Below are positions 8,360 to 62,000 of a stretch of 62,000 nucleotides of DNA, one piece after another; within the stretch, counting starts at the first letter, position 1, and every line of letters begins with the position of its first letter. This stretch comes from Malacoraja senta (taxonomy: Eukaryota). The notes under the pieces are model-generated. The model was not told where the DNA came from. It searched no databases and saw only the letters and a list, made by a program, of their open reading frames with translations. The translations under genes and the position numbers were made by a program. The stretch is taken from NCBI GenBank assembly GCA_038087875.1, contig CM075995.1, forward strand, positions 496,001 to 558,000. The letters are read 5' to 3'.

Positions 8360-8983
8360 TATACGTGGTAACTCTTTGCACATTTGTGTATTGCATGCAA
8401 ACAAAGAATTTCACTATAACATGTCCAAGTGACAATAAAGTATCAATCAATTGCTCAATTAATTTAAGGCACAATTGCTAAAATTTCAAGAAGGGTCTCA
8501 ACCCGAAACGTCACCCATTCCTTCTATCCAGAGATGCTGACTGAGTTACTCCAGCATTGTGTGTCTATCTTCATTGCTAACATTTCTTTAGCTTCTGCTT
8601 CCTGGAAAATAAATGACTTCAAACACCAGAATCATCTAACCATCGATGGAAAAACTGTGCTTATAGTGTAAACCATCAAAGTCATACCATCAACACGGAG
8701 TTCTTGTGCTAACAAAGGTTCAGATATTACTTTCAATTAATTGTACACAAAAATAAAAGATCAAGTTTTCATTGTTAGTACCGGCGGCACAGCGCCAGAG
8801 ACCCAGCCTCGATCCTGACCACGTTTACTATCTGTACGGACTTTGTATGTTCTCCCTGTGACCGCGTGGGTTTTCGCCGGGTGCTCTGGCTTCCTCCCAC
8901 ACTCCAAAGATCTACAGGTTTGTAGGTTAATAGGCTTCAGTAACATTTGTAAAATTGTCCCTGGTGTGTGTAGGATAGTGTTA

Positions 8984-11142: not shown

Positions 11143-12867
11143 TTAAAGTAAGATATCAAAATACCACCATCATTCAATAATAATCTTGACAAATTATCAC
11201 CAGGTTCAATTATTAACATTCAGCAATATAGCTTTAGTTTAGAGTTAAAGTGTGAGAGTAAGAGGTCCTTCAGCCCACCAGCTATCCCCGTACACGAGGA
11301 CAACCCTACACACATGGCGGCACAGTGGCGTTGTGGTAGAGCTACTGATTTACAGCGCCAGGGACCCTGGTTCGATCCTAACTAAGGTGCTTGTCTGTAC
11401 GGTGTTTGTACATACTCCCCGTGACCTGCGTGGGTTGTCTCCGAGATCTTTGGTCTCCAAAGACGTACAGGTTTTTAGGTTGATTTGGCTTTGGTAAAAA
11501 AAATTATAAATTGTCCCTAGTGTGTTCAGTTTAGTTTAGAGATACAGCACGGAAACGGGCCCTTCGGCCCACCGAGTCCCCGCCAACCAGCGATCCCCGC
11601 ACATTAACACTACCCTACACACACTAGGGACCAATTTCACATTCATACCAAGCCAATTAACCTACAAAGCTGCACGTCTTTGGAGTGTGGGAGGAAACCC
11701 GAGCACCCGGGGAAAACCCACGCTGTCACGGGGAGAACGTACAAACTCCCTAAGTCAACAACTCTGCGGCTACACCACAGTGCCAGCCCTCTATTTTTGC
11801 AAAAGTAGCGGAAATTAAGGTTCAGTACAGTCGTAGGTACAAAATCATAGGTAAGACGGCTGGGTGACATGAGCAAGCAGACCAGCATTGCTGGGACAGA
11901 ATGGTGCAGTAACCAACGCAGTGTTACAGCTCCATAATTGCATATTTTTGCAAAAAGATACAAGGTTCAATCCGTCACCTATTTCCTTCGCTCCATAGAT
12001 GCTGGCTCACCCGCTGAGTTTCCCCAGCATTTTCGTCTACCTTGGATTTTTCCAGCATCTGCACTTCTTTCTTGGACAAAGCAGGTTCAGTAAAGTCCCT
12101 GCTCTGGACTTCAATAAAAAACATGCCGCCAAATTCTTTTGGGCAATACCAAAGGGAAAGCTTAACACCTGGAGGCTCAAATCCAGACGAATTATTTCAC
12201 ATCAGCTCACACCTGCCGATTCGAGAGTGAACGTAAAATATCCCATGGCAGTATTTGACTATAACAGTAGAGTTACAGATCGAAATCAGTTGCAAAATGC
12301 CTTAAAAGAATTTGGGCGGCACGGTGGCACACCAGTAGAGTTGCTGCCTCACAGCGCCAGAGACCCAGGTTCAATCCTGACTACGGGTGCTCTCTGTACG
12401 GAGTTTGCATGTTCTCCCCGTGACTTGTGTGGGTTTTCTCCGGGAGCTCTGGTTTCCTCCAACACTCCAAAGACGTACAGATTTGTAGATTAATTGGCTT
12501 GGCAAAATTGTAAATTGTCTCTAGTGTATAGTATATAGTGTTAAGGGCGGCAGAGTTGTTGCCTTACAACGCCAGAGACCCGGGTTCGATCCTGACTCTG
12601 GGTGCTGTCTGCACAGAGTTTGTACCTTCTCCCCGTGTCCGCGTCAGTTTTCAACAGGACCTCCGGTTTCCACCCACGCTACAAAGACGTGTACGTTAAT
12701 TAGCTTGGTAAAATTGTAAATTGTCCCTCGTGTGTGCAGGTTAGTTCTAGTGTACGGGGTGATCGCTGGTCAGCACGGACTCGGGGGCTGAAGGGCCTGT
12801 TTCTGCACTGCATCTCTAATTTAAACCAAAACTACCCCTCCCAATCACACACTGACTTTGGCAATGG

Positions 12868-13985
12868 AGGGGGCCCTGGGCAAATTGGAGGAAAAGCACC
12901 TCATATTTCGCTTGGGCAGCTTACACCCCAGCGGTATGAATATTGAGTTCTCTAACTTCCTCTCTCCCCCTCTCTCCCCTCCCCCTCTCCTCCTCTCACC
13001 CCACCCCCTCTCCCCCTCTCCTTCCCTCTCCCCCTCTTCCCATTACTCCCCCTTCCCAGTTCGCCGACCAGTCTGACTGTCCCTGATTATTTTTTTCTGT
13101 TTGCTTTGTTGTTACCTTCTCCTAGCTAACAATGATCTATTCTACATCTTCCTTAGCAAAAGGATTTGAGTATAGGAGCAGGGAGGTTCTACTGCAGTTG
13201 TACAGGGTCTTGGTGAGACCACACCTGGAGTATTGCGCACAGTTTTGGTCTCCAAATCTGAGGAAAGACATTCTTGCCATAGAGGGAGTACAGAGAAGGT
13301 TCACCAGACTGATTCCTGGGATGTCAGGACTTTCATATGAAGAAAGACTGGATAGACTCGGCTTGTACTCGCTAGAATCTAGAATTTAGAATTTAGAAAC
13401 TTACAACATTCTTAAGGGGTTGGACAGGCTAGATGCAGGAAGATTGTTCCCGATGTTGGGGAAGTCCAGAACAAGGGGTCACAGTTTAAGGATAAGGGGG
13501 AAGTCTTTTAGGACTGAGATGAGAAAAACATTTTCCACACAGAGAGTGGTGAATCTGTGGAATTCTCTGCCACAGAAGGTAGTTGAGGCCAGTTCACTGG
13601 CTATATTTAAGAGGGGAGTTAGATGTGGCCCTTGTGGCTAAGGGGATCAGGGGGTATGGAGAGAAGGCAGGTACAGGATACTGAGTTGGATGATCAGCCA
13701 TGATCATATTGAATGGCGGTGCTGGCTCGAAGGGCCGAATGGCCTACTCCTGCACCTATTTTCTACGTTTCTATGTTTCCTTGATCTCCACCCCCTTTGA
13801 TGTCCCATTCTCACACCTTTCACTTCCTTATCTCTGTATTTCCCCCTCCCCTCTCAGTCTGAATGGTCTCGACCCGAAACGTCACCCATTCCTTCTCTCC
13901 AGAGATGCTGCCTGTCCAGCTGAGCTACTCCAGCATTATATTTCTATCTTCGGTTTAAACCAGCATCTGCAGTTCCTTCCTACAC
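12868..13985 (+). mobile_element. Penelope-like element 3' end, split by CR1
   Basis: KLEEKHLIFRLGSLHPSGMNIEFSNF resembles a PLE GIY-YIG C-terminus. Followed by a pyrimidine-rich UTR and the terminal repeat found throughout the window. Confidence 0.75.
13155..13776 (+). mobile_element. CR1-clade LINE 3' fragment
   Basis: Encodes LYRVLVRPHLEYCAQFWSP...RTRGHSL...QRVVNLWNSLP. Flanked by a TTCCTT duplication (13149-13154, 13777-13782) inside a Penelope-like 3' UTR. Confidence 0.9.
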
Positions 13986-15164
13986 AAAAACTAAACTCAC
14001 AATCTCAGAACGTAGCAGAACAGAATATGTGAAAAGGATTAGTAATACAGTGATTAAATAACCAGGATAGGCACAAAATGCTGGAGTATCTCAGCGGAAC
14101 AGGCAGCATCTCTGGATAGAAGGAATGGGTGACGTTTCGGGTCGAGACCACCCGAAATGTCACCCATTCCTTATCTCCAGAAATGCTGCCTCCTCCAGCA
14201 TTTTGTGCCTGTCTTCGGTGTAAACCAGCATCTGCAGTTCCTTTCTACACAGCTATGCAGAGGTTTGGACTATTGATGAGATACAACTTCAAGCCCACTC
14301 TGGCAGCTGGAGATTTGAATTGTGAATTCAATAATTTCATTTTCGGATTTACAAGCCATGGCAACCACAAAACCATCACCACAAGGGCCCGTAGGTTCAC
14401 TCATCTCCCTCAGGGAATGAAATCCACCATCCTGAACCAATATGATCTCTGAGAGTTGAGATATATTGTAACACCTTGTTTTAAAGGGCCTCTTTATAAT
14501 GGCTTTTGGTTATGGCAGCCGGACCTACCGACACAGCCGGTGACACCCTCTTCTCACCTCTCCCATCCGGGCAAAAGGTACAGAAGTGTGAAAACGCACA
14601 CCTCCAGATTGAGGAACTGTTCTTCCCAGCTGTTATCAGGCAACTGAACCATCCTACCACAACCAGAGAGAAATGCTGAACTATCTATCTACCTCATTGG
14701 TGATCTTCAGACTATCTTTGATCGGACTTTACTGGCTTTACCTTGCACTAAACGTAATTCCCTTATCACGTATATATACACTGAAAAATGGCTTGATTGT
14801 AATCATGTATTATCTTCCCGCTGACTGGTTAGCACGCATCAAAAACTTTTCACTGTACCTTGGCACACGTGACAATAAACGAAACTAAACTCACGGTACA
14901 CCAGCAGAGCCTTCATTACCAGTTGCCGCACCATTCGCTTGACGTGGCTGTTGTTGCAGCTTACACTGCTATGCTTCCTTCAGGCCACCACCACCATGGG
15001 GTTCCCTTCCTTCTCACCAGCTGCTGCTTCTTCCTGTCGGCCGTTGCTTTATCCACTCGGCCTCTCTTTTAGTTCTCTAGTTCCACACCCCACACCCCCA
15101 GCGATCTTCCTTCTCCCCCATAGTCGCTGAAATACTCCATCTTGGAAAAGGCCTATAGCCTTTA

Positions 15165-18105: not shown

Positions 18106-20581
18106 TTTTTAGAATAGTTCCGAGATATGGCATGGAAACAGGCCCTTCGGCCCACCGAGTCCACTCCAACCAGCGATCCCCGCACATTAGCACTATCCTA
18201 CACATACTCGGGACAATTTACATTTACACGGAGCCAATTAACCTGTATGTCTTTGGAATGTGGAATGAAACTGGAACGTCTTGGAAAAACTCACATGGTC
18301 ACGGGGGGAACGTACAAACTCCGTACAGACAGCACCTGTAGTCGGGATCGAACACGGGTCTCTGGCGCTGTCATCACTGTGAGGCAGCAACTCTACCGCT
18401 GCGCCAGCGTGCCACTCGAGTCCGATGTTGGGTTCATCCCTCAACTCATACATCATGGGTCGTGGAAACATGACGTTTGTTCCTCCTTCTTTGCTGATGC
18501 AAAATTCTTTGCGAATAACGATATGATAATGGCCTAATCATAACGACTCCAGCAGCTCGCCATCTACTCGTCAAGGCTGAGTAACGATGGTTTTCACTGT
18601 TGTTCTGAGTACTGACAGGAAATATTTTATATAGGAAGGAACTGCAGGTGCTGGTTTCCACCGAAGATAGACACAAAATGCTGGAGTAACTCAGCGGGAC
18701 AGGCAGCATCTCTGGAGAGAAGGAACGGGTGGCGTTTAGGGTCGAGACTCTCACTCAACCAAAGTGATTCCATCTTCAACTATTCAGTTGCTGCTAAATT
18801 CATATTTTCCAGTGAAAGTCTTGGGGCGGCACAGTGGCACGGCTGGTAGAACCGCTCTCTCACAGTGCCAGAGTCCCTGGTTCAATCCTGACCTCGGGTG
18901 CTGTTTTTTGTGGAGTTTGCACCGCGTTTGAGTTTCCTCCGGGTGCTCTGGTTTCCTCCCACATCACAAAGATGTGCAGGTTTGTAGGTTAATTGGGCCT
19001 CTGTAAATTTCCCCTTGGTCTGTAGGAGGTGGACGTGAAAGAGGGATAGCATAAAACTAGTGTGAACGGGCGGTCAATGATCAGCATGGACTCAGTGGGC
19101 CGAAGAGCCTTTTTCCATGCAGTATCTTTTAATCAATCAATCATTGTTATACGTGTTAAAGAAGGAACTGCAGATGCTGGAAAATCGAAGGTACACAAAA
19201 ATGCTGGAGAAACTCAGCGGGTGCAGCAGCATCTATGGAGCGAAGGAAATAGGTAACGTTTCAGGCCGAAACCCTTCTTCAGATCATTAACACTGTATAA
19301 TCATTGTTATACAATTGTTATACTATTCTTATACCAATGTGTTTCTGAATTTTGTTGTTGTCTTTTTTGGATCGAATTTCTGTCTTTAATTTGTGTATTG
19401 GTGATGTCTTTATAACTTATTTTACTCTGATTATATGTTTCTTTGTTACATTTTGTAAGGTGTCCTTGAGACTTTTGTATAGGCGCCCATAAATAAAATC
19501 TATTATTATTATTATTATTATAATGTAAAACACTTTGGCCAACGAGAATTGTTTTTTAAATGTGCTATATAAATAAAAGTGACTTGACTTGAATCAAACA
19601 TTTCCGAAGATAGACACAAAAAGCTGGAGTAACTCAGCAGGTCAGACAGCATCTCTGGAGGAAAGGAAAGGTGATGTTTCAGGTCGAGTGCAAAGAAGGG
19701 CCTCGAGCTGAAATGTCACCCATTCCTTTTCTCCAGAGACACTGCCTACCCCGTTTGAGTTACTCCAGCCCTTTGTGTCTATCTTCGGTATAAACCAGCA
19801 TCTGTAGTTCCTTCCTACACAATAAATCAAACAGTTGGGATGCAGCAATGTCCTCCACATAACTGGAATACAGAAGAAACAGAATAGTTAACCAGTACTC
19901 CGTGCTGGAAATTGCATGTTAAAATATGGACTTGCAATCAAACTAAAATAATTCAGAATTGGCCAACCATGCATGTTATTTGTGGATCTGCTTCACAGCG
20001 ATTGCCCCTCTCTGCAGACCAGTGAAATTTCAATTGGATTTATAAAAAAAACAGTAAGCCCTCCCGCCGACTCACATCCACTGAGCAGCGACTGCACACA
20101 GACTAACAATACGGGCAGCTGAAAGCATTTCATTGCCTGGCCCAGTGGCGTGCCTGGGTTGAGATTCAAATGAAAAACCTCCAAGCAAAGGAGGGTGAAT
20201 TATTCTGCCACAGCGTTGAGGCAGACAATGTCTAAACTTATTATATGGGAAGGAACTGCAGGTGCGGGTTAAACCGCAGATAGACACAAAAAGCTGGAGT
20301 AACTCAGCGGGTCAGACAGCATCTCAGGAGAAAAAGAATAGGTGATGTTTCAGGTCAAGACCCTTCTTCAGACTACTTAGTGACAATGCATATCATAGTC
20401 ATATAGTGTGGGAACAGGCCCTTCGGCTCAACTTGTCCCCACCAGCCAACATGTCCCATCTACACTAGTCTCACCTGCATGCGTTTGCCCATATCCCTAT
20501 AAACCTGTCCTATCCATGTACCTGTCCAAATGCTTCTTAAATGTTGCCTCAACTACCTCCTCCAGCAGCTCATTCCATCCA

Positions 20582-23924: not shown

Positions 23925-24718
23925 CCCGATCCAGAACTGGCACTGTTTGGATGCTCCGAGACTGCTTTGAACTTCACGTCTGAAGAACAACAAGCACTGA
24001 TGCTTGGTATGGTGGCAGCCAAGAAAATGATCCTAACAGACTGGAAATCATCCACACACCCCTGCTTCGAAAAATGGTTCAATCAAATGATAATAATCAT
24101 ACAGATGGAAAGGATAACGCTTCCACAACTCCAAGGTACCCAACAACCTTTTAAGTGTTTGGGGACCATTTATCAACCGTCTCAAAGACCAATAATTTCA
24201 TATTTTCTGCAGCGATGTAGTCCTGTGCTCTTTACTTGTGCTCTTGTAATGCCTGACTGTGTAGCACCATGTGGACTGTGGACTGTGTAGCACCATGTGG
24301 ACTGTGGACTGTGTAGCACCATGTGGACTGTGTAGCACCATGTGGACTGTGGACTGTGTAGCACCATGTGGACTGTGGACTGTGTAGCACCATGTGGACT
24401 GTGTAGCACCATGTGGACTGTGGACTGTGTAGCACCATGTGGACTGTGGACTGTGTAGCACCATGTGGACTGTGTAGCACCATGTGGACTGTGGACTGTG
24501 TAGCACCATGTGGACTGTGGACTGTGTAGCACCATGTGGACTGTGTAGCACCATGTGGACTGTGTAGCACCATGTGGACTGTGGACTGTGTAGCACCATG
24601 TGGACTGTGGACTGTGTAGCACCATGTGTTATGTCTGCCGGCTTTTTCTGTTGTCTTTTTATTTCTTTCTTTTCTTTCTCTTTTGTGTTTTGTTCTGTTT
24701 GTTTAAAAAATAAAAAAA

Positions 24719-25701: not shown

Positions 25702-26943
25702 TCAAAATTCAAGATTTCCTTTATTGTCATTCAGACATTTCGGTCTGAACGAAATTATGTTGCCTGCAGTCATACACAGAACCAATAATAACAAAACAGA
25801 CAATAAACACAAATTAAACATCCACCACAGTGAGTTCACTAAGCACATCCTCACTGTGATGGAGGCAAAGTCTTAGTCTCCGTCTCTTCCCTCCTTGTTC
25901 TCCCTCTGCGCTGAGGCGATCGATCCAGGCCGAAGATGCCGCCCTTCAGTCCAGCGGACCTCCGTGGTGATGTCGCCGCCACCGAAAGCCGGAATGCCGT
26001 CTCCGCTCCGAGACGGCCCGCCACAGCATCAGCTCCGGGTCCCGCAGTCTCCGCTCCGGGCCACCGCCCCAGCTCCAGGCCCCGCAGTCTCCGCTCCGGG
26101 CCACCGCCCCAGCTCCGGGTCCCGTAGTCTCCGCTCCGGACCCCGCTGCATCAGCTCCAGTCTCCGCTCCGGACCCCGCTGCACCAGCTCTGGGTCCCGC
26201 AGTCTCCGCTCCGGACCCCGCTGTATCAGCTCCAGGTCCCACAGTCTCCGCTCCGGACCCCGCTGTATCAGCTCCAGGTCCCACAGTCTCCGCTCCGGAC
26301 CCCGCTGCACCAGCTCTGGGTCCCGCAGTCTCTGCTCCGGACCCCGCTGTATCAGCTCCAGGTCCCACAGTCTCCGCTCCGGACCCCGCTGTATCAGCTC
26401 CAGGTCCCACAGTCTCCGCTCCGGACCCCGCTGCACCAGCTCTGGGTCCTGCAGTCTCCGCTCCGGACCCCGCTGTATCAGCTCCAGGTCCCACAGTCTC
26501 CGCTCCGGACCCCGCTGCACCAGCTCTGGGTCCCGCAGTCTCTGCTCCGGACCCCGCTGCATCAGCTCCAGGCCGCCGCCGAAAGCCAGAATGCCGCACC
26601 AGCAAGTCGGGCCACCGCTGCCTCAGCCCTGAAGACGGCCAGCCTCTCGTTGGTAAGTCCTGGCTGGCTCTGCCTCCGTAGCCTCGGGGTCGGTCGCAGG
26701 ATGGAGGTCACCAGCCCCGCCATTAGGCCTCACCGCAGACGGAGGCAGGGAAGGGGGATACGACACGAAAAAGTCGCATTCCCCCGAAGGAAGAGATAGA
26801 GAACATGATTCACCCCCCCTAACACAACCCAACAAACTAAAACTTAACCAAAACAAGACTAAAAAAACAACAGAAAAAAGTAAAAACAGACGGACTGCAG
26901 GCGAGCCGCAGCCGATTAACAGCGCTGCCACTTAGCGCCGCCA
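25702..26943 (-). mobile_element. Composite GC-rich non-autonomous retroposon containing the VNTR
   Basis: Splits a Harbinger MITE at CCCACTGTAC|GAGTTC. Has a GTGGCGGCGC...GGCTGCGGCTCGCCTGCAGTCCGTC head and a GACAATAAA tail shared with 5045-5818. Confidence 0.7.
26028..26572. repeat. GC-rich 42-bp VNTR
   Basis: About 13 units of CAGCTCCAGGTCCCACAGTCTCCGCTCCGGACCCCGCTGTAT and variants. The first units are 40 bp and one is internally deleted. Confidence 0.95.
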
Positions 26944-35305: not shown

Positions 35306-37985
35306 ATTCTCAGTGGAAAGGTTTGTGTCGCAATTGTCTCTTGGCTACAGATTTCTCCATTTAAAACAGGAGTGTTGAACATAATTGGGTCAGTCCCTGA
35401 GGATACTCAATTGTTCAGCTACATTTCCTGATTATTTTGTGGTCAACATCTGGCTCTTTTCCATGCGACTATTACAGTGATTTATGCCGGGGGGGAATTA
35501 AGTTTCCTACCAGCAAAGCCAATGTTTCCCTAAACGATCACCCGCCCGTAGGCTTGTCGGAGGCCTTCTGCCCAACTTGCCCACACATGTCCCATCAACA
35601 CGAGTCCCACCTGCCTGCATTTGGACCAGATCCCTCAAAACCTGTCCTATCCATCTGCCTGGATACAAAATGCTGGAGTAGCTCAGCGGGACAGGCAGCG
35701 GATGTCACCTGGATGACATTTCACCTGGATGACATTTCAGGTCGAGATCCTTCTTCACGCTGAAGAAGTCTGGTCTCGAGAAGGGTCTCCACCCAAAACG
35801 TCACCCATTCCTTCTCTCCAGAGATACTACTGCCTGTCCCGCTGAGTTACTCCAGCATTTTGTATCTATCTTCGGTTTAAACCAGCATCTGCAGTTCTTT
35901 CCTACACATTCTATCCATCTACCTGTCGAGCTGTTTCCTAAACATTGCGATAGTACATCCTCCTCCGGCAGCTCGCTCCGTACATCTATCATCCTTTGTG
36001 TGAAAGAGTTACCCTCAGGTTCTATTAACCCACCAGAAGACTCGTCGGTCGGTGGGACCCGGAACCCGCCGAAAGGCTCGTCGGCGTAACCGGGAGGGCG
36101 CTGGAGACGTCGGACACGAGGAGCAAGGGCCGGTAGGGAGGTGAACTGGGGTAATGCCTCCAGCGCCTTCAAGGTCGGCTGTAGGAGGCACCCCCGGGTC
36201 ACAAAGGAGAGGAGAGGGACGTTGGTTGGCGGGAACTGCCCCAGTACATCGAGCGCGTGGACCGACCGGACTTTGAATAATGGCCCCAAAAATGTACCTG
36301 CCTCAACTACCTCCTTCAGCAGCTCGTTCCATACACCTATCATCCTTTGCATGAAAAAGTTACCCCCCCCCCTCAGGATCCTATTAAATCTCTCCACCCC
36401 CTCACCTTAAACCTACGTCCTCTGGTTCTTGTTTCCCCTACGCTGGGCAAGAGACCCTGTGCACCAATCCGTTCTATTCCTCTCATGATTTTGTATTCTC
36501 AGAGGTCATAGAGCTCACACAAACAGATCCTTCATCCCACTTTGTCCATGCCGACCAGGTAGTCATGCCGACTGGGCTGGCCCCATTTGTCTATCAACAG
36601 CGTAGGAACACGGAGACACACAGACAGCCAGAGCAGACTAAAAACCAATGAAGAGACAAATTTACACGACTGCAACTTCATTCTCTCACTGCTACCAATC
36701 CCTATCAGCTGTCATTCTCAAGAGTTGCTGCCTTACAGCGCCAGAAACCCGGGCTCGATTCTGACTTTGCTACGGGTGCCGCCTGTACGGAGTTTGTACG
36801 TTCTCCCCGTGACCTGCGTGGGTTTTCTTCGCTATACCCGGTTACCACCCGCACTGCAAAGGCGTACAGGTTTGTAGGTTACTAGGCTTCGATAAAATTG
36901 TAAATTGTCCCCAGTATGTAGGATAGTGCTAGTGTACAAGGTGATCGCTGGTTAGTGCAGACTCTGTGGGCCGAATGGCCTGTTTCCGCACTGTATCACT
37001 AAAGTCTAAAGAGTAAAACTGTTGTGGTTTATGTTATGACATTCTCTTTGACTAGAGGTCAGATAGTTTCAAATGTGGCGCAGAAGAGCAGTGAACTATG
37101 GTCATAGTTAATAAAGACTTCATGAATGACCTTGGCTTCGTGATTGCTTGTCGTGCCATCAACAGATTGAAACCCAGATTTGATGTAACTGGAGTACAAG
37201 GGCTGGGATAGTGGATTCAGTGCCAGCTGCTACTAAAACGTACGACAAACCTGCAGACATGGACATAATTAGTGACGATCAGGGTTACTGGGAGCATCAT
37301 GGTTAATGGCGGACTATCGGGAGAAGAAGAAATGACAACTTTAAAACGCAGAGCAAGGTAACTTTTTCCAAATTCTGAAATTTGAAAAAATGTCTCCGTC
37401 GTTGCCAGTATTGTTCCCAAAGACAGAGTTTGTGGAAATTGGGCAATAGTACATCTGTTTCAATAAAGAAAGAGCACATAAAGGTCATTGACCAAAAGTC
37501 AACAACGGCAGGCTTCCAAAATTAATGCAAAAAGAATGTTAAAAGAAGCTTGCTTATCACTCTTTTTATACCAGGACTCAATAATCAAATAAAAAACAAC
37601 ACTTTTTTTTCCCCCTTCACCCTGTGTGAATCTGGAAAAGCAAGAATTTCGCTTTTGTAGCTTCCTGGGGGAAAGTGAACTATTTTTCAAAGTTTCTGAA
37701 CCATGCATTGCCTTGGTGACTAGATAAAGAAATGAGGTTATGGAAACACTGACATGGTCAAAAATATTTCTGAGAGTGTGTGAGCATCACTGATAAGGAT
37801 AAGGTCATGATTTATCTTTTTGATCCACTTCAATTTCAGTGCTCAAAAGAATTTGACAGCCTGTTGATAACAAATAACTTACAAAGCCATTGTAAGGATA
37901 TCATTTCACTGACAAAGAAATATGTTAACTTCCTCCACAATTGGGGGGGGGGGGGGGAGGAAAAGAAGAGTGTGCAATTACCTGA

Positions 37986-38285
37986 GTGTTAAAGAAGGAA
38001 CTGCAGATGCTGGAAAATCAAAGGTACACAAAAATGCTGGAGAAACTCAGCGGGTGCAGCAGCATCTATGGAGCGAAGGAAATAGGCCACAAAATTGCTG
38101 GAGAAACTCAGCGGGTGCAGCAGCATCTATGGAGCGAAGGAAATAGGCAACGTTTCGGGCCGAAACCCTTCTTCAGAACCCTTCTTCTTCGTCTGAAGAA
38201 GGGTTTCGGCCCGAAACGTTGCCTATTTCCTTCGCTCCATAGATGCTGCTGCACCCGCTGAGTTTCTCCAGCATTTTTGTGTACC
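37986..38285. mobile_element. Inverted-pair mini-Penelope element with hammerhead-like cores
   Basis: Two inverted arms, each with CTGAAGA-A-GGGTTTCGGCCC-GAAA-CGTT. TSD TGCAATTACCTGA (37973-37985, 38286-38298). Confidence 0.8.
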
Positions 38286-39830
38286 TGCAATTACCTGACT
38301 TGGGCAGCGCCAGAGACCCGGATTCGATCCTGACTAGGTACGCTTGTCTGTACGGAATTTGTACGTTCACCCTGTGAACTGCATGGGTTTACTCCCGAGT
38401 GCTCTGGTTTCCTCCCACACTCCAAATACATACAGAAAATGGAGGAGGACTGGCCAAAGTTTGTGCCTTCCACCACAGTGATGAATGCTTTGGTGGATGT
38501 TTATGTTACATTTTTATTGTGTGTTTGTGTGTTCTTTTTCATTGTACCGCTGCTGGCAAATTCATTTCACTTGCACTTTATGTGCAAGTGACGAATAAAA
38601 CTGATTGTGATTGTGAGGTAGGTTAAATGGCTTGGTATAATTTAAAATTGTCCCAAGTGTGTGTAGGATAGTGTTAGTGTGCGGGGATCGCAAGTCGGCG
38701 CCGACTCGGTGGGCCAAAGGGCCTGTTTCCGCGCCGTAACTCTAAACTAAACATTAAACATAACCCTGACTATACGAAATATCCTACATTATAAAAAATG
38801 TTGGCATTAATTGAAAGTGGTAAACTTGTAAAATAACGTCAAAAAAACAGAATGTATCACAAAATAATATTTCTGTAAAGAATCTATATTTAACACTCTT
38901 ATTTTAAAATACCACAAAATAGCAAACGATCCAATAATTTAAACCATGTTCCTCAAATCTCCTGGCCCAGAAATTATTAACAAATGCCATTTTAACCATC
39001 CATCATAATATCTATCTGTGACTGTGTGGATATGCAGCAAATTAAAATGGACACGAGGTACAATGGTGGCTTTGTTCTTAACAAACTGCAGTCAAGAGTA
39101 AAAGGGACCATAGCCTTAATCCTTTACTTTAGACTGCGGCAACAGGCCCTTCAGCCCAGCGTGTCCGCACTGACCAGCGATCACCCCGATCACTAGCACT
39201 ATCCTACACACTAGGGACAATTTTACAGCCTACCGGGCCGATTAACCTACAAGACCTGTACGTCTTTGGAGTGCGGGAAGAAACCAGAGCACCTGGAGAA
39301 ATCCCACGCGGTCACAGGAAGGCCCTGTAAGGCAGCAACTCTACCGCACCTAATCCTTGTGCCTATTCTATAACCCTATTGTCTTCCATAAATAACAAGT
39401 TTGAATTTTGACCAAACATTCATAGACATTTTTAAAATACCATATTGGGTGGTTTGGCACTCCTTAACTTGTAATCCTGATTTATCTGCCTTTATCCTAT
39501 TGCCAAAATACCTTGGTAATATGCAGCTCATTAGTTCATAAATTCACATGATAGGAGCAGAATTAGGTCATTCGGCCCAATCACGTCCACTCCGCCATTC
39601 AATCATGGCTGATCTCCCTCCTCAGGAAGTCACCCTCCTAACCCCATTCTCCTGCCTTCTCCCCATAACCCCTGACACCCGTACTAATCAGGAATCTATC
39701 AATCTCTGCCTTCAAAATATTGGCTTGGCCTCCACAGCCTTCTGTGGCAACGAATTCCACAGATTTACCTGGAGTATTGTGTAAGGGGAAAGGGAAACGA
39801 GTGATATAGGATACAAAGATATGCAAAAAA

Positions 39831-40990: not shown

Positions 40991-41174
40991 TTAATTTAAA
41001 ATAAAAATTCTGAACAGTGGTCAATGGCCACAATGGTCAGGGGTAGCACAGTGCCGCAGCGGTAGAGTTGCTGCCTTACAGCACCAGAGAACCCGAGTTC
41101 GATCCTATTCCTAATAGTTTTGAGGAAGCTTTCAAAACAAGTGCAGAGCTACCTCAGTCTTACACAAAATCTGC

Positions 41175-41560
41175 ATGACAACCCAACAGTATGAACATTG
41201 ACTTCTCTAACTTCAAGTAACCCTTGCTTTCCCTCTCTCCATCCCTCCCCCTTCCCAGTTCTCCGACCAGTCTGACTGTCTCCGACTGCATTTTATCTGT
41301 TTGCTTTGTTGTTACCTTCTCCCAGCGAACAATGATCCATTCTACATTTTCCTTGATCTCCATCCCCTTTGTCCTGTTTTCACACTTTACACTTCCTAAT
41401 CTACGTATCTCCTTCTCCCCTGACATCAGTCTGAAGAAGTGTCCCGACCCAAAGCGCCACCCATTCCTTCTCCCCAGAGATGCTGCCTGACCCGCTGAGT
41501 TACTCCAGCATTTTGTGCATATCTTCGGTTTAAACCAGCATCTGCAGTTCCTTCCTTTAC
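41175..41560 (+). mobile_element. Penelope-like element 3' end
   Basis: QPNSMNIDFSNFK* then the same UTR and terminal repeat; an uninterrupted version of 12925-13985. Confidence 0.75.
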
Positions 41561-41846
41561 AGCATTATAAAGTGTCAGTCCATCTGCATCAGTCACACAC
41601 TATTTATTATGCATCCCCCTATCTGGTAAATAAAGTATTTTACCGTCCACGAGCACAACTGAGAAACGTCACGATGAAGCACAAATGTGGATGTATTATG
41701 AGATGATCAAAGTTTGAGAAGAGTGTTATTAGTGAAATAACACAACGGAGCTTGTACGTTCTCCCCGTGACCTGCGTGGGTTTTATTGGAGATCTTCGGT
41801 TCCCTCCCACCCACACTCCAAAGACTTACAGGTTTGTAGGTTAATT

Positions 41847-42447: not shown

Positions 42448-44519
42448 GGTTAATTGCTTCTGTAAAATTGTGAATTGTCCCTGGTGTGTGTAGGATAGTG
42501 TTAATGTGCGGGGATTGCAGGTTGGCGGGGACCCGGTGCGAACCAAAGTAAACTGCTTACACCAGCAGGTTCACAACCAAGACAGCACTGATTTAAGATA
42601 AAACAGTCGGAAAATTAGCTTTAAAAAAAAAAAGACACTCAGCAGGCTCTGAAATGCAGTGTCTGAAAGAGTGCTGGAGACAGATTTAAGAATAGCTTTT
42701 GATAGGGCATAGGATAATGAAACAGTGAAGGAAGAACAGGGTAGTGCACTAATGGTTTTGGTCTTTCAAAAGTGAGAGATGCCATGGGTCTGAACTGACA
42801 AATACCCTGCCTTTGGGATCTGATAAAAGGTTAGTTTCTGAAAACATTCAACATTTTGAAAACATGTTTCATTAAATATTAAACAAGGGACGTCACAGTG
42901 ATGTAAGCTACTGCCTTACAGCGCCAGAAACCCGGGTTCGATCCTTAACTACAAATGCTCGTCTGTACGGAGTTTGTACGTTCTCCTTATGACAGCGTGG
43001 GTTTTCTCCAAGACATAAAAGGCACAAGACATCAAAGTTTTCTCCAAAGACATAAAAGTTTGCAGGTTAATTGGCTTGGTATAAATGTAAACTGTCCCTG
43101 TGTGTAGGATAGTGGGGATCGCAGGACGGTGCCGACTCGGTGGGCCAAAGGGCCTGTTTCCGCGCTGTATCTCGAAACTAAAAAATAATTCTGAACTCAT
43201 GCTTCATGAAACATTCTGAAGATAAGTTTCAGTCTCAACAGATGCTACTTGACATTCTGCATATTACCAGAGTCTTCTGTTTTCATTTCAGATTTTCTTT
43301 GCGGCATATTATCTTTATTTCACACTTCCCATACCTTCAGGTTTTTGCGTGCATTTTATTTTTGTTTAGTTTAGAGATACAGGGCGAAAACAGGCTAATT
43401 GTTAGTGTGCTCTTGCTCAATACCCATTGTACACTGCAGTGACAAAGGAGAGTCCTTGAAGGTTCAATAAGGATAGTAAATATTGGAATAGTCCAAGGTC
43501 TGGATAGAGTGGATATGGAGAGGATGTTTCCACCAGTGGGAGCGTCTCGGACCAGAGGCCAGAGCCTTAGAATACCAGGACGTACCTTAAAAAGTCGAGG
43601 AAGAATTTATTTAGTCAGCGGGTGGTGAATCTGTGGAATTCATTACCACAGACGGTTGTAGGGGCCAAGTTGATGGATATTTTTAAGGCAGATTCTTGAT
43701 TAGTACAGGTGTCAGGGGTTATGTGGAGAAGACAGGAGAATGGGGTTGAGAGGGGAAGGTAGATCAGCCATGATTGAATGGCAGAGTAGACTGAAGAAGG
43801 GTCTCGAGCCAAAACGTCACTCATTCCTTCTCTCCAGAGATGCTTCTTGTCCTGCTGAGTTACTCCACCTTTTTGTGTCTATCTTCGGCAGAATAGACGT
43901 GATGGGCCGACTGGCTCCTAGAACTTATGAACTTAGAACTGCAGAATATGGAAAAAGTATTCAATGAAAAATCCCCCCATATGAAATGGAAGATAGCGAA
44001 TTCATGGGATGGAGCGGTGATATCGATGAGCATATTGATCAACGGTACAGAAAAGGTGGTATTGGAGATCGTGAGATGCTTTAAGGTGGATAAGTCCCCA
44101 GGGTCTGACCACATGTTATGGGAAGCAAGAATGGAGATATATATCAATTGGGAAAGTGGACAAGGGAATGGTATATAGAATTTAACTGTATAAGCAGATG
44201 CATTCTGGAAAGTTAAACTAGGCCATAGAACATAGAAAAATAGGTGCAGGAGTAGGCTATTCAGCCCTTGACACCCGGCCGTTGACAAGGAAGGGTCCTA
44301 ACTAGGTCAAGATTTTATCAAGTAAATGACCACTTGCAGTCTTTTTAACTACCTTGTGCCACCTTCAGTATATTGTATCGATTGTTCTTGAATAAGGGGG
44401 GGAACTCATTCTTTAGTCAGAGGGTAGTTAATCTGTGGAACTCATTGGCACAGAGTGCCGTGAAGGCCAAGTCAGTAGATATTTTGATGGCAGAGATAGA
44501 CAAATTCTTGATTAGAACG

Positions 44520-46637: not shown

Positions 46638-47460
46638 AGATGCTGCCCGTCTCGCTGAGTTACTCGGACATTCCTTGTCTCTTGTTGAGAAATAGTTCGG
46701 TATTCCAGCATTTTGTGTCTATCTCCGGTGTAAACCAGCATCTGCAGCTCCTTCCTGCACAGTTCGGTATTTTTCGTTGTATTATCGTAAACACACAACG
46801 CAAACCTTTGCCGGCGTCGCAAATGTGAAGTCAAATGACGAAGTCAATAGACTTTTCGCCGCGCACAAGATCTTGATCCAACCCACCCACCCACCCACTC
46901 TAATCCAAGCGATCTGTTAGATCACAACGTCGTAAATATATCCGAATACAGATAGATGCTTAGATTTTACACCAGTTATAAATGCCTTCTACGGGGCCTT
47001 CCCTGCCACAAACACTTTCAACTGAACACAGTGTAATAACTGAAATAACTTGTCCAATTAACCGTTCCCTTAAAGGACAAGCCAAGTAACGCCCCCCTCC
47101 CCGGGCGGGCCAGTTATAGAGAGCCGCTCCTTCAACAACAAACAACGGCGGAATCTCAGCGTGAGTGGCCGGTGGAGGAAGCTCGCCACACCTGCTATTC
47201 AAGTCGTTGTGTTTCATGGGACTGGCGGCATTTGGGTTCGTTGGAGGAAGGACATGCAGACGCTGGTTTACACCGAAGATCAACATTGGAGTAACTCAGC
47301 GGGGACGGGCAGCATCTCTGGAGAGAAGGAATGGGTGACGCTTCGTTCGGGTCGAGACACCTTCTCCACACTTCAGAATATAGATCGTTGTTAGCTGAGG
47401 GGAAGGTGCCAACGGGGCACACAAGCGGTTCAATTTAACCAGGAGGACAGTCAAAGTAAA

Positions 47461-47560
47461 TGGGGGAGGGAAGGAGGGAGAGGGAAGGAGGGAGAGGGAA
47501 GGAGGGGGAGGGAAGGAGGGGGAGGGAAGGAGGGGGAGGGAAAGAGGGAGAGAGGGAGAA
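47461..47560 (+). repeat. Polypurine GGGAAGGAGGGGGA-type repeat
   Basis: About 7 copies of a roughly 14-bp pure G/A unit adjoining a minus-strand Penelope 3' fragment. Confidence 0.85.
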
Positions 47561-48023
47561 AGCAAGGGTTACTTGAAGTTGTAAGCTGCCCAAGCGAAAT
47601 ATGAAGATGGCTTGGATTTACGACCTTTGTGGGGGTGGGGGTGGGGGTCAGTTCTGCGTCTCTCCGACAAGCCAATTGCAAAGCGACCCATCCAGCCTGG
47701 TGGCTTGTACAAAACAATTATTTATTTACCAAGTTCTGGAAGCAGAGTAAGGCCATTCCCATCGAGTCTCTACTCCGCTATTCAATCATGCCTGACCCAT
47801 CTTTCCCTCTCAACCCAATTCTCCTGCCTTCTCCCCATAAACCCCTGACACCCGCACTGATCAACAATCTGCCAATCTCCGCCTTCAAAAATATCCATTG
47901 ACGACCTCCACAGCCGTTTGTGGCATAGCCAAGAATTATTTTATAATATATATATATATACAGACCTGGGATAGATTTACAACTTTTTTTTTTTAAAGCA
48001 AAGGAGAGCATTAACACCAGTAG

Positions 48024-48267
48024 GTTACACAAAAATGCTGGAGAAACTCAGCGCGTGCAGCAGCATCTATGGAGCGAAGGAGATAGGCAACGTTTCGGGC
48101 CGAAACCCTTCTTCAGACACCCCCCCCCCACATCAGTCTGAAGAAGGATTTCGGCCAGAAACGTTGCCTATCTCCTTCGTTCCATAGATGCTGCCGCACC
48201 CGCTGAGTTTCTCCAGCATTTTTGCGTAGCCTTCGATTTTCCAGCATCTGCAGTTCCTTCTTCAACA
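48024..48267. mobile_element. Inverted-pair mini-Penelope element with hammerhead-like cores
   Basis: Palindromic arms around a short spacer. TSD ATTAACACCAGTAG (48010-48023, 48268-48281). Confidence 0.8.
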
Positions 48268-48752
48268 ATTAACACCAGTAGTTTGGAGTTAAACTAAAAA
48301 CAGGTGGGGCGAGCTTAAACTGGGTACGTTTACAAGAGCGTCTATAGAAAGACGCACACAGTGGAACTAGCAGCGTGGGGAGGAGCCGAGTCTCTCCTGT
48401 CACCCCCCCACAAACACAAACAACCCAACATCGCCTTGAAACAAACTGATCTTCACACCCAGTCCTTCAAAAATTGCACAGATCGAACCACACCCTGCGG
48501 GCGAGTGCAAATATAAGCCATAAAAGGCGGGTTCTGGTGAACCCAACTCATCGCACACAATTCACCCCGAATAATCAATGACTCCATCAATGTCAAATTA
48601 CCGACACAGCACGGTTAATGTTGACCGATTGCTCATCGCTGTTATTTCAACCTCGTCTCTCGTTCTTCCCAACATCCTTTTCTTGGCTGTTGAGCTGTAT
48701 ATCTTTGGGTACTTGCCAACATTAGCTTTCCTTTTTTCTCTCTGTCACACAC

Positions 48753-50449: not shown

Positions 50450-51196
50450 TTCAAGTCAAGTGAGTGTATTGTCATGTGTCCCTGGTAGGACAATGAAATT
50501 CTTGCTTTGCTTGAGCACAACAGAACATAGTAGGCATTTACTACAAGGCATTCTATAAATATATACACAATGGTCAATATACTGATAAAGTGCAAATAAC
50601 AGTATTGGCTAGTAAAGTTCAGTGTTATGTCCGAGCCAGGTTTAATAGCCTGATGGCTGTGGGGAAGTAGCTGTTCCTGAACCTGGTCGTTGCAGTCTTC
50701 AGGCTCCTGTACCTTCTACCTGAAGGTAGTAGGGAGATGAGTGTGTGGCCAGGATGGTGTGGGTCCTTGATGATGCTGCCAGCCTTTTTGAGGCAGCGAC
50801 TGTGGTAGATCCCCTCGATGGAAGGGAGGTCAGAGCCGATGATGGACTGGGCAGTGTTTACTACTTTTTGTAGTATTTTCCTCTCCAGGGCGTTCAAGTT
50901 GCCGAACCAAGCCACGATGCAACCGGTCAGCATGCTCTCTACTGTGCACCTGTAGAAGTTAGAGAGAGTCCTCCTTGACAAACCGACTCTCCGTAATCTT
51001 CTCAGGAAGTAGAGGCGCTGATGTGCTTTCTTAATAATGGCATCATTGTTCTCGGACCAGGAAAGATCTTCAGAGATGTGCACGCCCAGGAATTTGAAGC
51101 TCTTGACCCTTTCAACCATCGACCCGTTGATATAAACGGGACTGTGGGTCCCCATCCTACTCCTTCCAAAGTCCACAATCAGTTCCTTGGTTTTGC
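50450..51196 (-). mobile_element. Rex1/Babar-like LINE 3' end
   Basis: Nearly identical to 16545-17285, with the same C-terminal ORF and 3' UTR. Confidence 0.9.
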
Positions 51197-51321
51197 GTTA
51201 CAGACACAGACACGCACAAAAAAAAAAGCTGGAGTAACTCAACGAGATCTGTGGAGAAAAGGGAATAGGTGACTTTTCGGATCGAGACCCTTCTTCGGAC
51301 TGAGAGCCAGGGGAAAGGGAA

Positions 51322-51880: not shown

Positions 51881-53084
51881 AAACGAGAGATATAGACGGT
51901 GATATACTCTGAAGAAGGGTCAAAGAGAGGCAGTGTGGAAACAGGCCCTTCAGCCCAACTTGCCCACACCGGCCAACAATGTCCCAGCTACACCTGCCTG
52001 TGTTTGGTCCACATCCCTCCAATCTGGGTCCTATCTAGGTACCTGTGTAGGGGCTCAAACCGAAACGTCACCCATTCCTTCTCTCCAGAGACGCTGCCTG
52101 AGTTACTCCAGCACTTTGTGTCTATCTTCTATTGTTGATCAATTGTTCGGTATTCCAGCATTTTATGTCTATCTTCGGTCTACCTTCCTACACAAGACCA
52201 AGAACCACCGGCTAAGAGCATTCAGTGGTCACCATTCTCCCCATAACCCCTGTCACCCGTGGCCCAGCGGTAGAGTTGCTGTCGCTTGCAGGTTAATTGG
52301 CTTGGTATAAATATAAATTGTCCCTAGTGCATGTAGGATAGTGTTAATGTGTGGGGATCGCTGGCCGGCGCGGACTCGGTGGACTGAAGGGCCTGTTTCC
52401 ACGCTGTATCTGTATAAAATTAAACAAAGAGGTTGTCAATTTGTGCAGGAACGAACTGCAGATGCTGTTTTTTTTTTTTTTAAATATTTTAATTTTATTA
52501 GAAGTAAGTACAATTGTATACAATCATATTTTCATAATACCTTTTATGTACAGCTTCTTATTTAAAAAAAAAATTGTAATAAAGAAGAAAAAGAAAAAAG
52601 TTAGATAATGAAAAATAGAAAAATGTGAGATATATAGTGTGTGAAAAAGAAAAATAGAGTGAAAAAAGAAAGTTGAGACATAGAAAATAGAAGAAAAAGA
52701 GTAAAAGAAGAAAAGAAAATAGAAGTAAGGAGATCATTTATAATCTTGACCATCCCCAGTCACGGATTAGCTTTTACACCTGTGTTGCACGAAGATAGAC
52801 ACAAAAAGCTGGAGTAACTCAGTGGGACAAGCAGCATCTCTGGAGAGAAGGAATGGGTCTCAAGTGGGTCTCCTTCTCTCTAGAGATGCTGCCTGTCCCG
52901 CTGAGTTACTCCAGCTTTTTGTATCTATCTTAGGTTGTACATTTGGTGAAAAAGAAAAAGGTTAAAGAAGATGGAATCTAACAGGACCTTTGAGGAATCT
53001 CAAATTGTGAGAGGTAAACAGAAAGCATATATTTCCTCGGGCAGAACGATCAACAATTAGAAAATGGAGATTTAAGATAACTAA

Positions 53085-53314: not shown

Positions 53315-53594
53315 TGAGGCTTTGAGGAAAACATCCTCCACCAAAAGAATGAACTTCTTATGGAGTCCACACACACAAGATTAGAAGTTGTTCAGCCAGA
53401 GCTGAACACACTTCTCGGCATCTGCGTACAATGGTGTTTGTCTTGTCGCGTCTTGTGCTTCTTGTGCGTGGTGGTGGAAAGATTGGTGGAAACAGGGCCG
53501 CGACGTGAACGCTCTTTCCTTGACCCCAAAAGAATGATGAGGTTTGTGGAACAGCATCATTGTGGTAAAGCACTTTGGCCAACGAGACTTGACT

Positions 53595-57272: not shown

Positions 57273-57893
57273 CTGGTTTAGCAGACTGACAAGCCACACA
57301 CTTAACGACCTCAGGCTTGTTTTGCACAAAGCAAACGGCACAGTCCCAAGCTCCTTCGGGTTTCTTAAACTGATCCGCTAGTCCCAAAGCGGTACTGCTG
57401 GAAGTGTTGAACTCCATTCTTTTTGTTCTTTCAGTTACCGTAGGCAAACTCAGTGCAGGTTTTACTCCAGTGTCAGGTTTTGTCGTTTGACAGGCTGCAC
57501 ATTTTACAGCTTCCGAATTGTTTTGAACAAAGCAGACATCACAGGACCAGAAACCCACCGGAGGCTTGAACTTTTCCCCAAAACTCAATGGAGTCTCTAT
57601 AGAAGAAGCTTTGCTGCTGTTGGCTGACTCAACGTTAGTCTGTGTGGGATGCACAGATTTAGCAGTCTGACAAGCCGCGCATTGACTATCCATACTTTTG
57701 TTTTGTAAGAAACAGGAGCCACATTGCCACGAACCTTCAGCGGGTTTGAACTTATCTCCAAATCCAAATGTGCCGGAGCTCTCATTGGAGGCACTGTACT
57801 TTCCAGTAGCCGATGGCAAAGGTTTCACAGTAACTGGCTTACTGGTCAACGAGTTGACCGCACATCGAGTAGTAGGTGGAGGCAAAGTGAACT
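57273..57893 (-). CDS. NUP153: NUP153 exon with RanBP2-type zinc fingers 1-3 (621 bp, phase 1-1)
   Basis: Three W-x-C-x2-C-x3-N-x6-C-x2-C fingers (WQCGSC..CAAC, WSCDVC..CAAC, WDCAVC..CVAC). Bounded by ccaaag| and |gtatgt. Confidence 0.95.
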
Positions 57894-59783: not shown

Positions 59784-61224
59784 CTATATATGAGGAAAAA
59801 ATATATTCAAATACACATATACAAACAAATACATTTCAGAGCTGGTCTTTTCCACTGCTATCTTAATGCTTATACAAGACAGTTGATCAATTCCAGATTT
59901 GGCAACTGATCAATTCCAGGTATCCAGTAATTTTGATCACACAGAGGGTAAAACCCCTTCAAATTTACCCCATCAGAATGTGGAATATCATACACTCAGA
60001 GGACCTTCTTTTGAAACCGACGATTTTATAGTTGTCCCAGAAATCTGTAGGCGAAATACAGCCTAACCAAAGTCTTCCAAAGTCTTCTAAAGCTGCATCA
60101 TAATTCTTATATTCAATGCCCCGGCCAATGAAGGCAAGCATACCATATGCCTTCTTTATCATTCTATCTACTTGCCACTTTCAGAGAGTTATGGACTTGG
60201 ACCTCCAGATCCCACTGTACATCAATGTTGTTGCCATTAATTGTATATTTTCCCCCTTACATTTAACCTCCCAAATTGCAACACCTCACACTTTAAACTC
60301 CATTTGCTATTTTTGTGGCTGATCTACATCACGTTGTATACCTTGACAGTCTTCTTCACAGTCCATGACCACAGACTTTGGAAAAACAAAATATACTGTG
60401 GCCAACAGTTTGCTTCCATCTACAACTAGTTTCATCTCAAAATACTATCAGTTTTGATAAATGCCCCGTTCTCCTTCGGCCAAAAATTTAGTTTTAACTA
60501 CTCTCTCCTTTTCGAAATAGTGCGTGAAATAGTAGATGCAGATATGTAGAAGAATCAGAAAAACAATCCATTTGCTCCATTCATCAGGTTTTCTTTTTAG
60601 TTATTGTAGCATTGGCTATAGCATGTTAGCCAATTAGAATGCTAAGTCATTATAACCCCGCTTAATTGTAACTTTCATAGTGTAAGATCCTGCCCACTGC
60701 TTGCCAGTCGGAGTAGCAGTGTGAACGTATGATGTACTGTTTAGATGATGTAGACCTGAACAATAAAGATGCTTGTGCTTCAACCTGTGTGAGACTAAGG
60801 TATTTACATGAGCGAGTTTGAGCTCTTTACAGTTATCCAATGCTGCCACCCAAAACGCTTGTAACCCACTATTATTCTTCCGTTCGGCAACATTTTATCT
60901 AATATGAGCCTTCGTGGGCCATTCCCCCCCCCCACCCCACCCACAAATGTAGATTCAGAGAATTTAGAAATATTTCTTTAAATATTTTTACACTATTAGC
61001 ATACCTCGATCTAATGTCCATTTCTATCATACCAATTCATCTTATACGCAGTAGACTTTAAGTTCAAAACTCTAATTTCCAAATAAACTGGCGTTCCTCT
61101 TAAACGGCAAACAATATTCTACATGAACACTGCTTCTGGAGGGCTCCTTCCCACTACTTTACTAATTAAATCAATGCCAATATGCAAGATGGAATCTCTT
61201 CTGCAAAAATTGATAGATTTGATG

Positions 61225-61350
61225 TTTAAGAAGGAACTGCAGATGCTGGAAAATCGAAGGTAGACAAAAATGCTGGAGAAACTCGGCGGGTGAGGCCGCA
61301 TCTATGGAGCGAAGGAAGTTGGCAACGTTTCGGGTCGAATCCCTTCTTCA
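61225..61350 (-). mobile_element. Single-arm mini-Penelope element
   Basis: Begins at the CTGAAGAAGGG core. TSD GATAGATTTGATG (61212-61224, 61351-61363). Confidence 0.8.
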
Positions 61351-61593
61351 GATAGATTTGATGCTCTTTGATACAGGAATAATAAGGTAAGCAAGGTATT
61401 TCAAAATATTAATCACAAACAATTTATTTATAACATTACTAACATGAGAAATTCTCAAAGAAATTGCATCAAAATATTGCAGAAGAAATCCATGATAGTA
61501 ATTACTATAGATTGGATACGAGCTACAATCACCGCAAGACATTTTGTGGAAAAGCTGGCAACAAAAAGAGAGCAACAAGCAAGAGTGTTCTAC

Positions 61594-61731: not shown

Positions 61732-62000
61732 CTGCAGAGGGCACAATATTGCATTCATTATTTTAATACACTGTCATTTGACAATCTCCAGACATATTGC
61801 ATAACTCTTGTAAAGAGCAAGTTAAATTACATGTTAAATGCCATTTGTAAGTTATGCATGCAGAATCATAGAGTGATACAGTGCGGAAACAGGCCCTTCG
61901 GTTCAACTTGCCCACTCCGGCCAACAATGTCCCAGCTACACTAGTCCCACTTGAGTTAGATAGAGCTCTAGGGGCTAGTGGAGTCAAGGGATATGGGGAG

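Follow-up and report, generated by a model that had tools for sequence, protein, structure and literature searches.

Short repeats with a minimal hammerhead ribozyme core are scattered through a 62,000-nucleotide (nt) stretch of Malacoraja senta DNA (contig CM075995.1, positions 496,001 to 558,000), referred to here as the window. The question is whether the ribozyme itself spreads them, as in the retrozyme-like, non-autonomous family envisaged by an original prediction that singled out the element at 37986-38285, or whether they are pieces of a longer element. The analysis reported here indicates that these repeats are likely dead end-pieces of a Penelope-like element (PLE) and not a ribozyme-driven parasite. 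With moderate confidence, we further propose that they are end copies made from the parent RNA by priming at its tail sites, and that their shared 5' edge is a run-off end marking an RNA start just before the hammerhead core.

All copy counts given below are for the window, which is repeat-rich vertebrate DNA. Positions in the repeat are numbered from C3 of the hammerhead core (+1), which places the predicted cut after +28. Searching with a profile of 13 window copies yielded 55 hits, 46 of which were kept by the end-calling filter. Hand curation, in which one internal duplicate was removed and split pieces were joined, left 45 related arms covering 5,171 base pairs (bp), or 8.3% of the window. 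The 5' ends were called by hand with a subfamily B sequence as the upstream reference, and arms below approximately 30 bp escape detection. As a repeat resembling short interspersed elements (SINEs) occupies 4,215 bp at 25 loci, the hammerhead repeat was fairly described as the commonest short repeat in this DNA. Three types were distinguished: a young subfamily A (0 to 8 mismatches per 88 nt between arms), subfamily B, which is older, and a third type with few copies.

Structure of the element at 37986-38285

This 300-bp insert is flanked by perfect 13-bp duplications. It is not a single unit but a composite of two head-to-head arms on opposite strands, which differ at 1 of 88 nt, together with a tandem duplication of 61 bp inside the longer arm. 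Its parts are as follows.

37973..37985, plus strand: left target-site duplication, 13 bp, a perfect match to 38286-38298
37986..38177, minus strand: long arm of subfamily A, running from -1 to +130 (far tail site) and holding the internal duplication
38027..38148, minus strand: 61-bp tandem duplication of +29 to +89 (Tandem Repeats Finder: 2.0 copies, 98%)
38149..38176, minus strand: intact minimal hammerhead core (CUGAAGA, bulged A, 4-bp stem II, GAAA, C-G, UU)
38178..38190, plus strand: 13-nt junction filler, a presumably templated stutter of +4 to +13, the last bases copied
38191..38285, plus strand: inverted short arm of subfamily A, running from -2 to +93 (near tail site), without the tail
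38193..38220, plus strand: intact minimal hammerhead core
38286..38298, plus strand: right target-site duplication, 13 bp, paired with 37973-37985

The first base of the duplicated 61-bp piece lies exactly at the predicted hammerhead cut and its last base at the near tail site. This start at the cut hints that cleaved RNA was sometimes copied. A transfer RNA-derived copy of the SINE-like repeat follows directly after the element (approximately 38299-38735).

Relationship to a Penelope-like parent

Three long copies extend upstream from the repeat through a pyrimidine-rich 3' untranslated region (UTR) to the end of an open reading frame (ORF). The first two had been recognized in the original prediction, and the third is an additional case.

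12836..13986, plus strand: long copy with GIY-YIG ORF end (12882-12959), 3' UTR split by a CR1-like insert, damaged core, and tail
41175..41561, plus strand: long copy with the last ORF codons, pyrimidine-rich 3' UTR, a decayed core at 41431, and tail
47242..47604, minus strand: additional long copy that includes the ORF end and has an internal deletion stopping at the front of the core

The names CR1-like and, for the SINE-like repeat, HE1-like SINE are ones that we presume to fit these window repeats. A 30-amino-acid translation of 12870-12959 returned six proteins, five of which were matched in their C-terminal pieces; P0001, a low-complexity match, was discarded. One returned protein led to proteins of rays that match GIY-YIG (E values of 5e-4 and 2e-3, below the Pfam cut-off), and these led to 85 proteins of at least 740 amino acids, the majority with reverse transcriptase (RT) domains. 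In a tblastn search, 12846-12959 aligned with residues 331-368 of protein P0007 (E value of 5e-8). The relatives of the element protein are named from rays and skates. Because three copies run into an ORF end tied to RT plus GIY-YIG proteins, the repeat is, on sequence grounds, the 3' end (pseudo-long terminal repeat [pLTR] end plus tail) of an RT plus GIY-YIG PLE, in keeping with the Penelope origin originally put forward.

A CX2-5CxxC linker between RT and endonuclease marks the Neptune and Nematis groups, according to the accessible text of PMC8557442. This linker was present in 8 of 9 relatives examined, which points to Neptune, and the parent is likely of Neptune type; the linker region lies outside the window copies of the repeat, and Nematis shares the linker. 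At 58327-58784 (plus strand), there is a decayed piece from within a Neptune-type PLE ORF, which runs from the thumb to the start of GIY-YIG, has the cysteine linker (E value of 1e-14 to P0007), adjoins a zinc-finger exon, and has no link to a pLTR in the window.

Contigs of runs X1, X23, X24, and X17 aligned on 41160-41580 gave 229,696, 133,984, 42, and 23,524 records, respectively. By these alignments the family is very abundant, the summed depth not being a copy number. A pattern scan of viral contigs for the repeat gave 0 loci. Six loci from a similar scan of metagenome contigs were dropped as chance matches, each having only 20 to 22 nt in common with the repeat.

Two 3' sites and the pairing of arms

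The 3' ends of 44 of the 45 arms fall at two sites approximately 35 nt apart, +84 to +100 (19 arms) and about +120 to +132 (25 arms); the remaining arm is interrupted by a CR1-like insert. Head-to-head pairs use one arm per site in 9 of 10 scorable cases (P ~0.01), with the tail on one arm only, the exception being the pair at 52790-52936, in which both arms end at the near site. Every composite unit has its own junction, and none is shared. In the run X1 contigs, heterogeneous and unrelated loose ends follow 41514-41517 and 41556 in thousands of records, the near site being blurred in this alignment by reference substitutions at 41518-41519.

Previous work on endonuclease-bearing (EN+) PLEs of the Neptune clade describes, in the accessible text, the same parent type (RT with a C-terminal GIY-YIG domain) and heavy 5' truncation, with an adjoining inverted 5'-truncated copy, a tail of 30 to 40 bp at one end, a short target-site duplication, and a hammerhead in the terminal repeat (Craig 2021, PMC8557442; Arkhipova 2013, PMC3846280). 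Likewise, the Poseidon element PAc of Anolis carolinensis initiates reverse transcription at two internal sites that lie downstream of the hammerhead and bound the tail, with nicking and extension on both strands of the target (accessible text of Frangieh 2024, PMC11167929). Judged from sequence, the 3' boundaries found here are the published PLE tail sites, and the arrangement of arms and tail is as published. Tail-to-tail joints between the near and far sites (41517 to 41552-41561) occur in tens of contigs of X1, X23, and X17 and may be insertions into older copies.

A pile-up of 5' ends at the hammerhead front

Scattered 5' stops between +8 and +76 account for 19 of the 45 arms, or 0.007 stops per base. 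The other 26 arms extend to +4 or further, and 21 of these stop within -5 to +4, where 1.6 would be expected from the downstream stop rate (P ~1e-21; P ~1e-9 with a tripled rate and a 330-fold correction for the post hoc choice of window). The stop rate in this interval is about 25 times that downstream. Among the other arms extending past +4, two end at -18 and -21 and three reach the ORF. The pile-up includes all three types (6 arms of subfamily A, 11 of B, and 4 of the third type), and its commonest start is -1, the base after AG (5 to 6 of 21). Several of the 5' ends are fixed by a second arm or by an abutting duplication (8488, 43792, and 61352). For the arm at 30374 the start was entered as -1 and reads -3 in the sequence, which leaves the count unaffected.

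Ordinary random 5' truncation with no preferred boundary would fit the 19 scattered ends and the three arms that reach the ORF, and PLEs are known to be heavily 5' truncated (accessible text of PMC8557442). Nevertheless, with 21 of 26 stops falling in -5 to +4 and a stop rate there so far above the downstream one, random truncation is rejected in this window, and we give it virtually no credence. Shared boundaries of the short copies are thus supported.

Junction fillers at 38178, 30360, and approximately 35760 repeat the first template bases, as would be expected if the RT had run out of template there. The filler at 19284-19298, also at a 5' junction, contains in inverted orientation the 7 bases with which the other end of the element begins and looks as if a second arm had been primed and then aborted. 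Of four arms looked at, one had an untemplated cap G before -3, which lends no support to an RNA start. Contig depth rises 10-, 29-, and 14-fold in X1, X23, and X17 from the bin at 41400-41414 to that at 41430-41444. This rise was not used as support for a 5' step, because the bins at the ORF end are higher still (X1 and X23) and the core of the reference copy is mutated. Among the matches listed for the aligned contigs, none had a 5' loose end near the core. No description of such a pile-up was found in the accessible text of the literature searched, subscription papers being outside its coverage.

The hammerhead core and a possible role of cleavage

The pattern CTGAnGA-N-GAAAC has 10 matches in the window, compared with 1.21 expected, and none of 100 shuffles reached 10. 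An intact core with a 4-bp stem II is present at 38193 (plus strand) and at 38176, 48116, and 19282 (minus strand). Three of these had been located correctly, while the copy at 19256/19282 (minus strand), previously listed as a variant, is in fact intact; the variants reported near 23573, 31798, 46222, 48138, 50278, 20343, and 61324 are all present. Four of the 19 core-spanning arms are intact, all of them in subfamily A (4 of 7, compared with 0 of 10 in B). The minimal type I layout with a palindromic ACGU was correctly identified, the CUGAnGA and GAAAnnUH boxes enclosing a stem II within the 3- to 7-bp range. This agrees with the minimal metazoan PLE hammerheads (accessible text of Cervera and De la Pena 2014, PMC4209133), which share CUGAnGA, an extra base before stem II, G10.1-C11.1, GAAA, the palindromic 15.2-16.2 pairs, and NUH, and which also occur mainly as single motifs in truncated PLEs, with close opposite-strand pairs reported. 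In contrast to the minimum of 3 bp in the published descriptor, stem I has 2 bp in both subfamilies, as in an atypical D. virilis motif, and stem II has 4 bp (accessible text of PMC4209133). One searchable supplementary file of PMC4209133 had no shark or skate entry. The caution that a stem I of 2 to 3 bp might leave the copies inactive was thus well placed, with 2 bp the value found.

Subfamily B cores carry 11 mismatches in 106 positions and their flanks 92 in 755 (P = 0.75; one row, 13861, was anchored off the damaged core), so that core and flanks decay alike, and the losses in B fall at CpG sites within and beside the core. Covariation analysis of 6 pairs in 20 copies gave no two-sided compensatory change, copies of a single lineage giving little power; one-sided U-A/U-G changes separate the stems of the subfamilies. 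A search with Rfam models up to an E value of 5 matched no hammerhead, and the top hits were hairpin matches to microRNA models below threshold. A weak, partial match to the Rfam CPEB3 ribozyme at 53494-53527 (minus strand; 26.9 bits with a threshold of 35, E value of 0.006) lies beside an assembly gap and is probably due to chance.

With a folding model that ignores tertiary contacts and help from proteins, stems I and II are predicted to pair with near-zero probability in 4 of 4 copies, and a double-hammerhead fold is put at -6.7 kcal/mol, compared with -24.8 kcal/mol for a misfolded duplex (a gap of about 18 kcal/mol). Because the two cores of the element at 37986-38285 lie on opposite strands, any transcript of it would form one long hairpin, predicted to be about 90 bp and to bury the core (z = -22.8). 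Separately, in the subfamily A arms at 19154-19283 (minus strand) and 48120-48268 (plus strand), base pairing is predicted between the end of the tail and the beginning of the core, which would close the 130-nt unit into one fold (z = -2.25).

These results bear directly on the retrozyme explanation, in which the hammerhead cuts tandem transcripts into monomers that are circularized and reinserted by the PLE enzyme. Four young arms do keep an intact core, and 2 of the 45 arms, the 61-bp duplication described above and the arm at 52858, begin at +29, the predicted cut (2 of 37 at risk, P ~0.03). A third candidate start at the cut, 46623, was rejected, as it is a CR1-like tail beside an arm that starts at about +46. 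The metazoan non-LTR retrozymes share with the present units a short, non-coding, PLE-related sequence and a type I hammerhead, and PLE-derived retrozymes were reported in one chondrichthyan genome (accessible text of PMC7229834 and bioRxiv 10.64898/2026.07.22.740005). Retrozymes, however, are head-to-tail tandems that yield monomers and circles. Here, none of the 26 core positions checked in the window has a head-to-tail partner within 1 kb; the units are single or head to head, with starts some 28 nt before the cut and ends at PLE tail sites, and they share no junctions. Together with the buried core, the 2-bp stem I, the disfavored active fold, the lack of two-sided compensatory changes, and the flank-like decay of the old cores, these features make a retrozyme very unlikely, and the retrozyme-like family originally proposed is not borne out. 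That so few arms start at the cut argues against cleaved RNA as a frequent template.

We infer that the hammerhead is a passenger of the parent that is predicted not to fold in these copies. In Anolis, the motif cleaved only in the presence of protein, the hammerhead was dispensable for insertion in vitro, and no reads ended at its cut site (accessible text of PMC11167929).

Origin of the 5' boundary

In the proposed mechanism, the parent nuclease would make staggered nicks about 13 to 14 bp apart, and each nicked end would prime reverse transcription at one of the two tail sites, giving single arms or head-to-head pairs. The element RNA would begin at an initiator-like TCAGT just upstream of the core, and its first 130 nt would hold both priming sites. 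RT starting from sites 95 to 130 nt downstream would then run off the 5' end and leave copies of 95 to 135 bp that end at the RNA start. Such a start would account for the length, both boundaries, and the persistence of the short copies across subfamilies without a separate family. The putative start site is the following.

41426..41432, plus strand: TCAGTCT, initiator-like, with A at -3; also a CAG closing the pyrimidine tract (possible splice acceptor)

This reading faces several difficulties. Bases -5 to +2 match the 7-nt initiator consensus with A at -3, so that the start would be placed from sequence, and the same spot resembles a splice acceptor. Neither the whole parent ORF nor a full-length parent or an upstream pLTR is present in the window, which also holds no ORF-linked copy of subfamily A and only a single A arm reaching -18. 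The 5' evidence consists of hand-called ends of 45 arms in one window, with the upstream reference taken from subfamily B. Two arms start exactly at the predicted cut (P ~0.03), and the core of subfamily A, unlike that of B, leans weakly toward conservation (0 mismatches in 77 positions, compared with 21 in 539 in the flanks; P = 0.09). Finally, the start site of the D. virilis element lies about 120 nt upstream (accessible text of PMC2377424), and the 3' end of an intron there meets helix I (accessible text of PMC4209133).

The last of these points also counts for a rival explanation, in which the copies are PLE end copies as proposed, with a 5' edge set by an RT stop or by RNA processing on a longer template: a pyrimidine tract with a CAG acceptor, a bound spliceosome or other protein, or a degradation intermediate arrested by the hammerhead fold. 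We regard this, the main rival, as unlikely. A pyrimidine tract ending in CAG lies immediately before -1, the commonest start directly follows this AG, two arms end within the tract (-18 and -21), and the internal deletion of the 47604 copy stops where the core begins. Yet there is no common upstream exon before the copies that start at -1, and 8 to 9 arms retain intron-side bases to -2 to -5. Stem II is not predicted to form, and RT stalled by a hairpin stops at the 3' foot of the hairpin and not at its 5' edge.

A further alternative is a self-propagating, non-autonomous unit of 95 to 135 nt with an internal promoter and both priming sites, mobilized in trans by the Neptune protein in the manner of a SINE. 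Both ends are shared, the units have their own duplications, short copies outnumber ORF-bearing ones by 42 to 3, and subfamily A has no ORF-linked copy in the window. In addition, the D. virilis Penelope has an internal promoter, rotifer pLTR sequences alone supported integration in trans, and non-autonomous PLEs have been described (accessible text of PMC2377424, PMC3846280, and PMC8557442, respectively). On the other hand, most short copies begin downstream of the initiator-like bases and would therefore lose the initiator, and the composite units lack shared junctions. One A arm extends to -18 into sequence resembling the B 3' UTR, and A therefore has a longer source. Variant bases at the ORF end are also present in the aligned contigs, suggesting that several subfamilies carry the ORF. 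Nothing here requires a short element that propagates itself, and as the explanation of these copies we consider it improbable.

Other units, duplications, and neighboring features

Target-site duplications of 12 to 15 bp were recognized at 7 of 34 units, and most old units have no recognizable one. In a duplication scan, 6 of the 34 units scored at least 9, compared with approximately 1% of 150 random intervals. As had been claimed, the units carry their own duplications: these are perfect and 13 to 14 bp long at the element at 37986-38285 and around 19154, 48024, and 61225, and of 12 to 15 bp with one mismatch around 8488, 35662, and 43792. The six further units are listed below.

48010..48281, no single strand: head-to-head unit, subfamily A, perfect 14-bp duplication; minus arm -2 to +91, plus arm -18 to +130
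19139..19312, minus strand: single arm of subfamily A (-1 to +130) with a perfect 14-bp duplication and, at its 5' junction, a short filler
61212..61363, minus strand: single arm with its 5' end (-1/+1) directly against a perfect duplication of 13 bp
8474..8586, plus strand: single arm +4 to +96, subfamily B, 14-bp duplication with one mismatch
43780..43898, plus strand: single arm about +2 to +98, subfamily B, 12-bp duplication with one mismatch
35647..35925, no single strand: subfamily B unit of two head-to-head arms with a stuttered junction; 15-bp duplication, one mismatch

The young arm with the perfect duplication at 61212-61363 sits at a gene whose likely exons lie at 57172-57999 and 61348-61773 (both minus strand), the ORF at 57172-57999 encoding three RanBP-type zinc fingers by Pfam. 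We take this gene to be Nup153-like. Fragments of a young long interspersed element with long open frames and an RT domain, frameshifted, are found at 16716-18197 and 50625-51197 (minus strand) and at 6810-7388 (plus strand). The SINE-like repeat, with its approximately 25 loci, forms an inverted pair at 11452-11688. Minisatellites with higher-order periods lie at 24255-24628 (71 bp) and 26032-26572 (42/126 bp; GC rich, with open frames on both strands).

Comparison with known elements and implications

This type of element, its motif, and the layout of its insertions are already published, and the gain is a sharper test, with the 5' pile-up as one testable oddity, and not a new system. A 2017 study reportedly dealt with PLE hammerheads that cleave as dimers. 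Compared with the EN+ Neptune-clade units in the accessible text of PMC8557442 and PMC3846280, most units here lack ORF sequence and their 5' ends crowd into a 9-nt window at the hammerhead front. PAc differs in belonging to the Poseidon clade and in having its ORF start inside stem II, whereas here no open frame runs from the core through the tail (accessible text of PMC11167929). Nothing on truncation was found in the accessible text of a report on killifish Neptune elements (PMC12602865).

The family is very abundant and its copies record both ends of the cDNA, which makes them a readout of the template. Such copies bear on the cellular role of PLE hammerheads and on the formation of pLTRs and inverted arms. 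If the pile-up is an RNA start, the mass of tiny, ORF-less PLE copies would be explained without a separate family. A bolder and rather doubtful proposal is that a discrete Neptune RNA 5' end at the first bases of the hammerhead, combined with both priming sites, created a complete mini-retroelement of 95 to 135 nt that spread in trans in several waves in rays and skates without ribozyme cleavage. If that were true, a SINE-like partner would have arisen from the two ends of a PLE itself, and the genomic copies would preserve a fossil record of where its RNAs ended, with rare in vivo cleavage at +29 among those ends.

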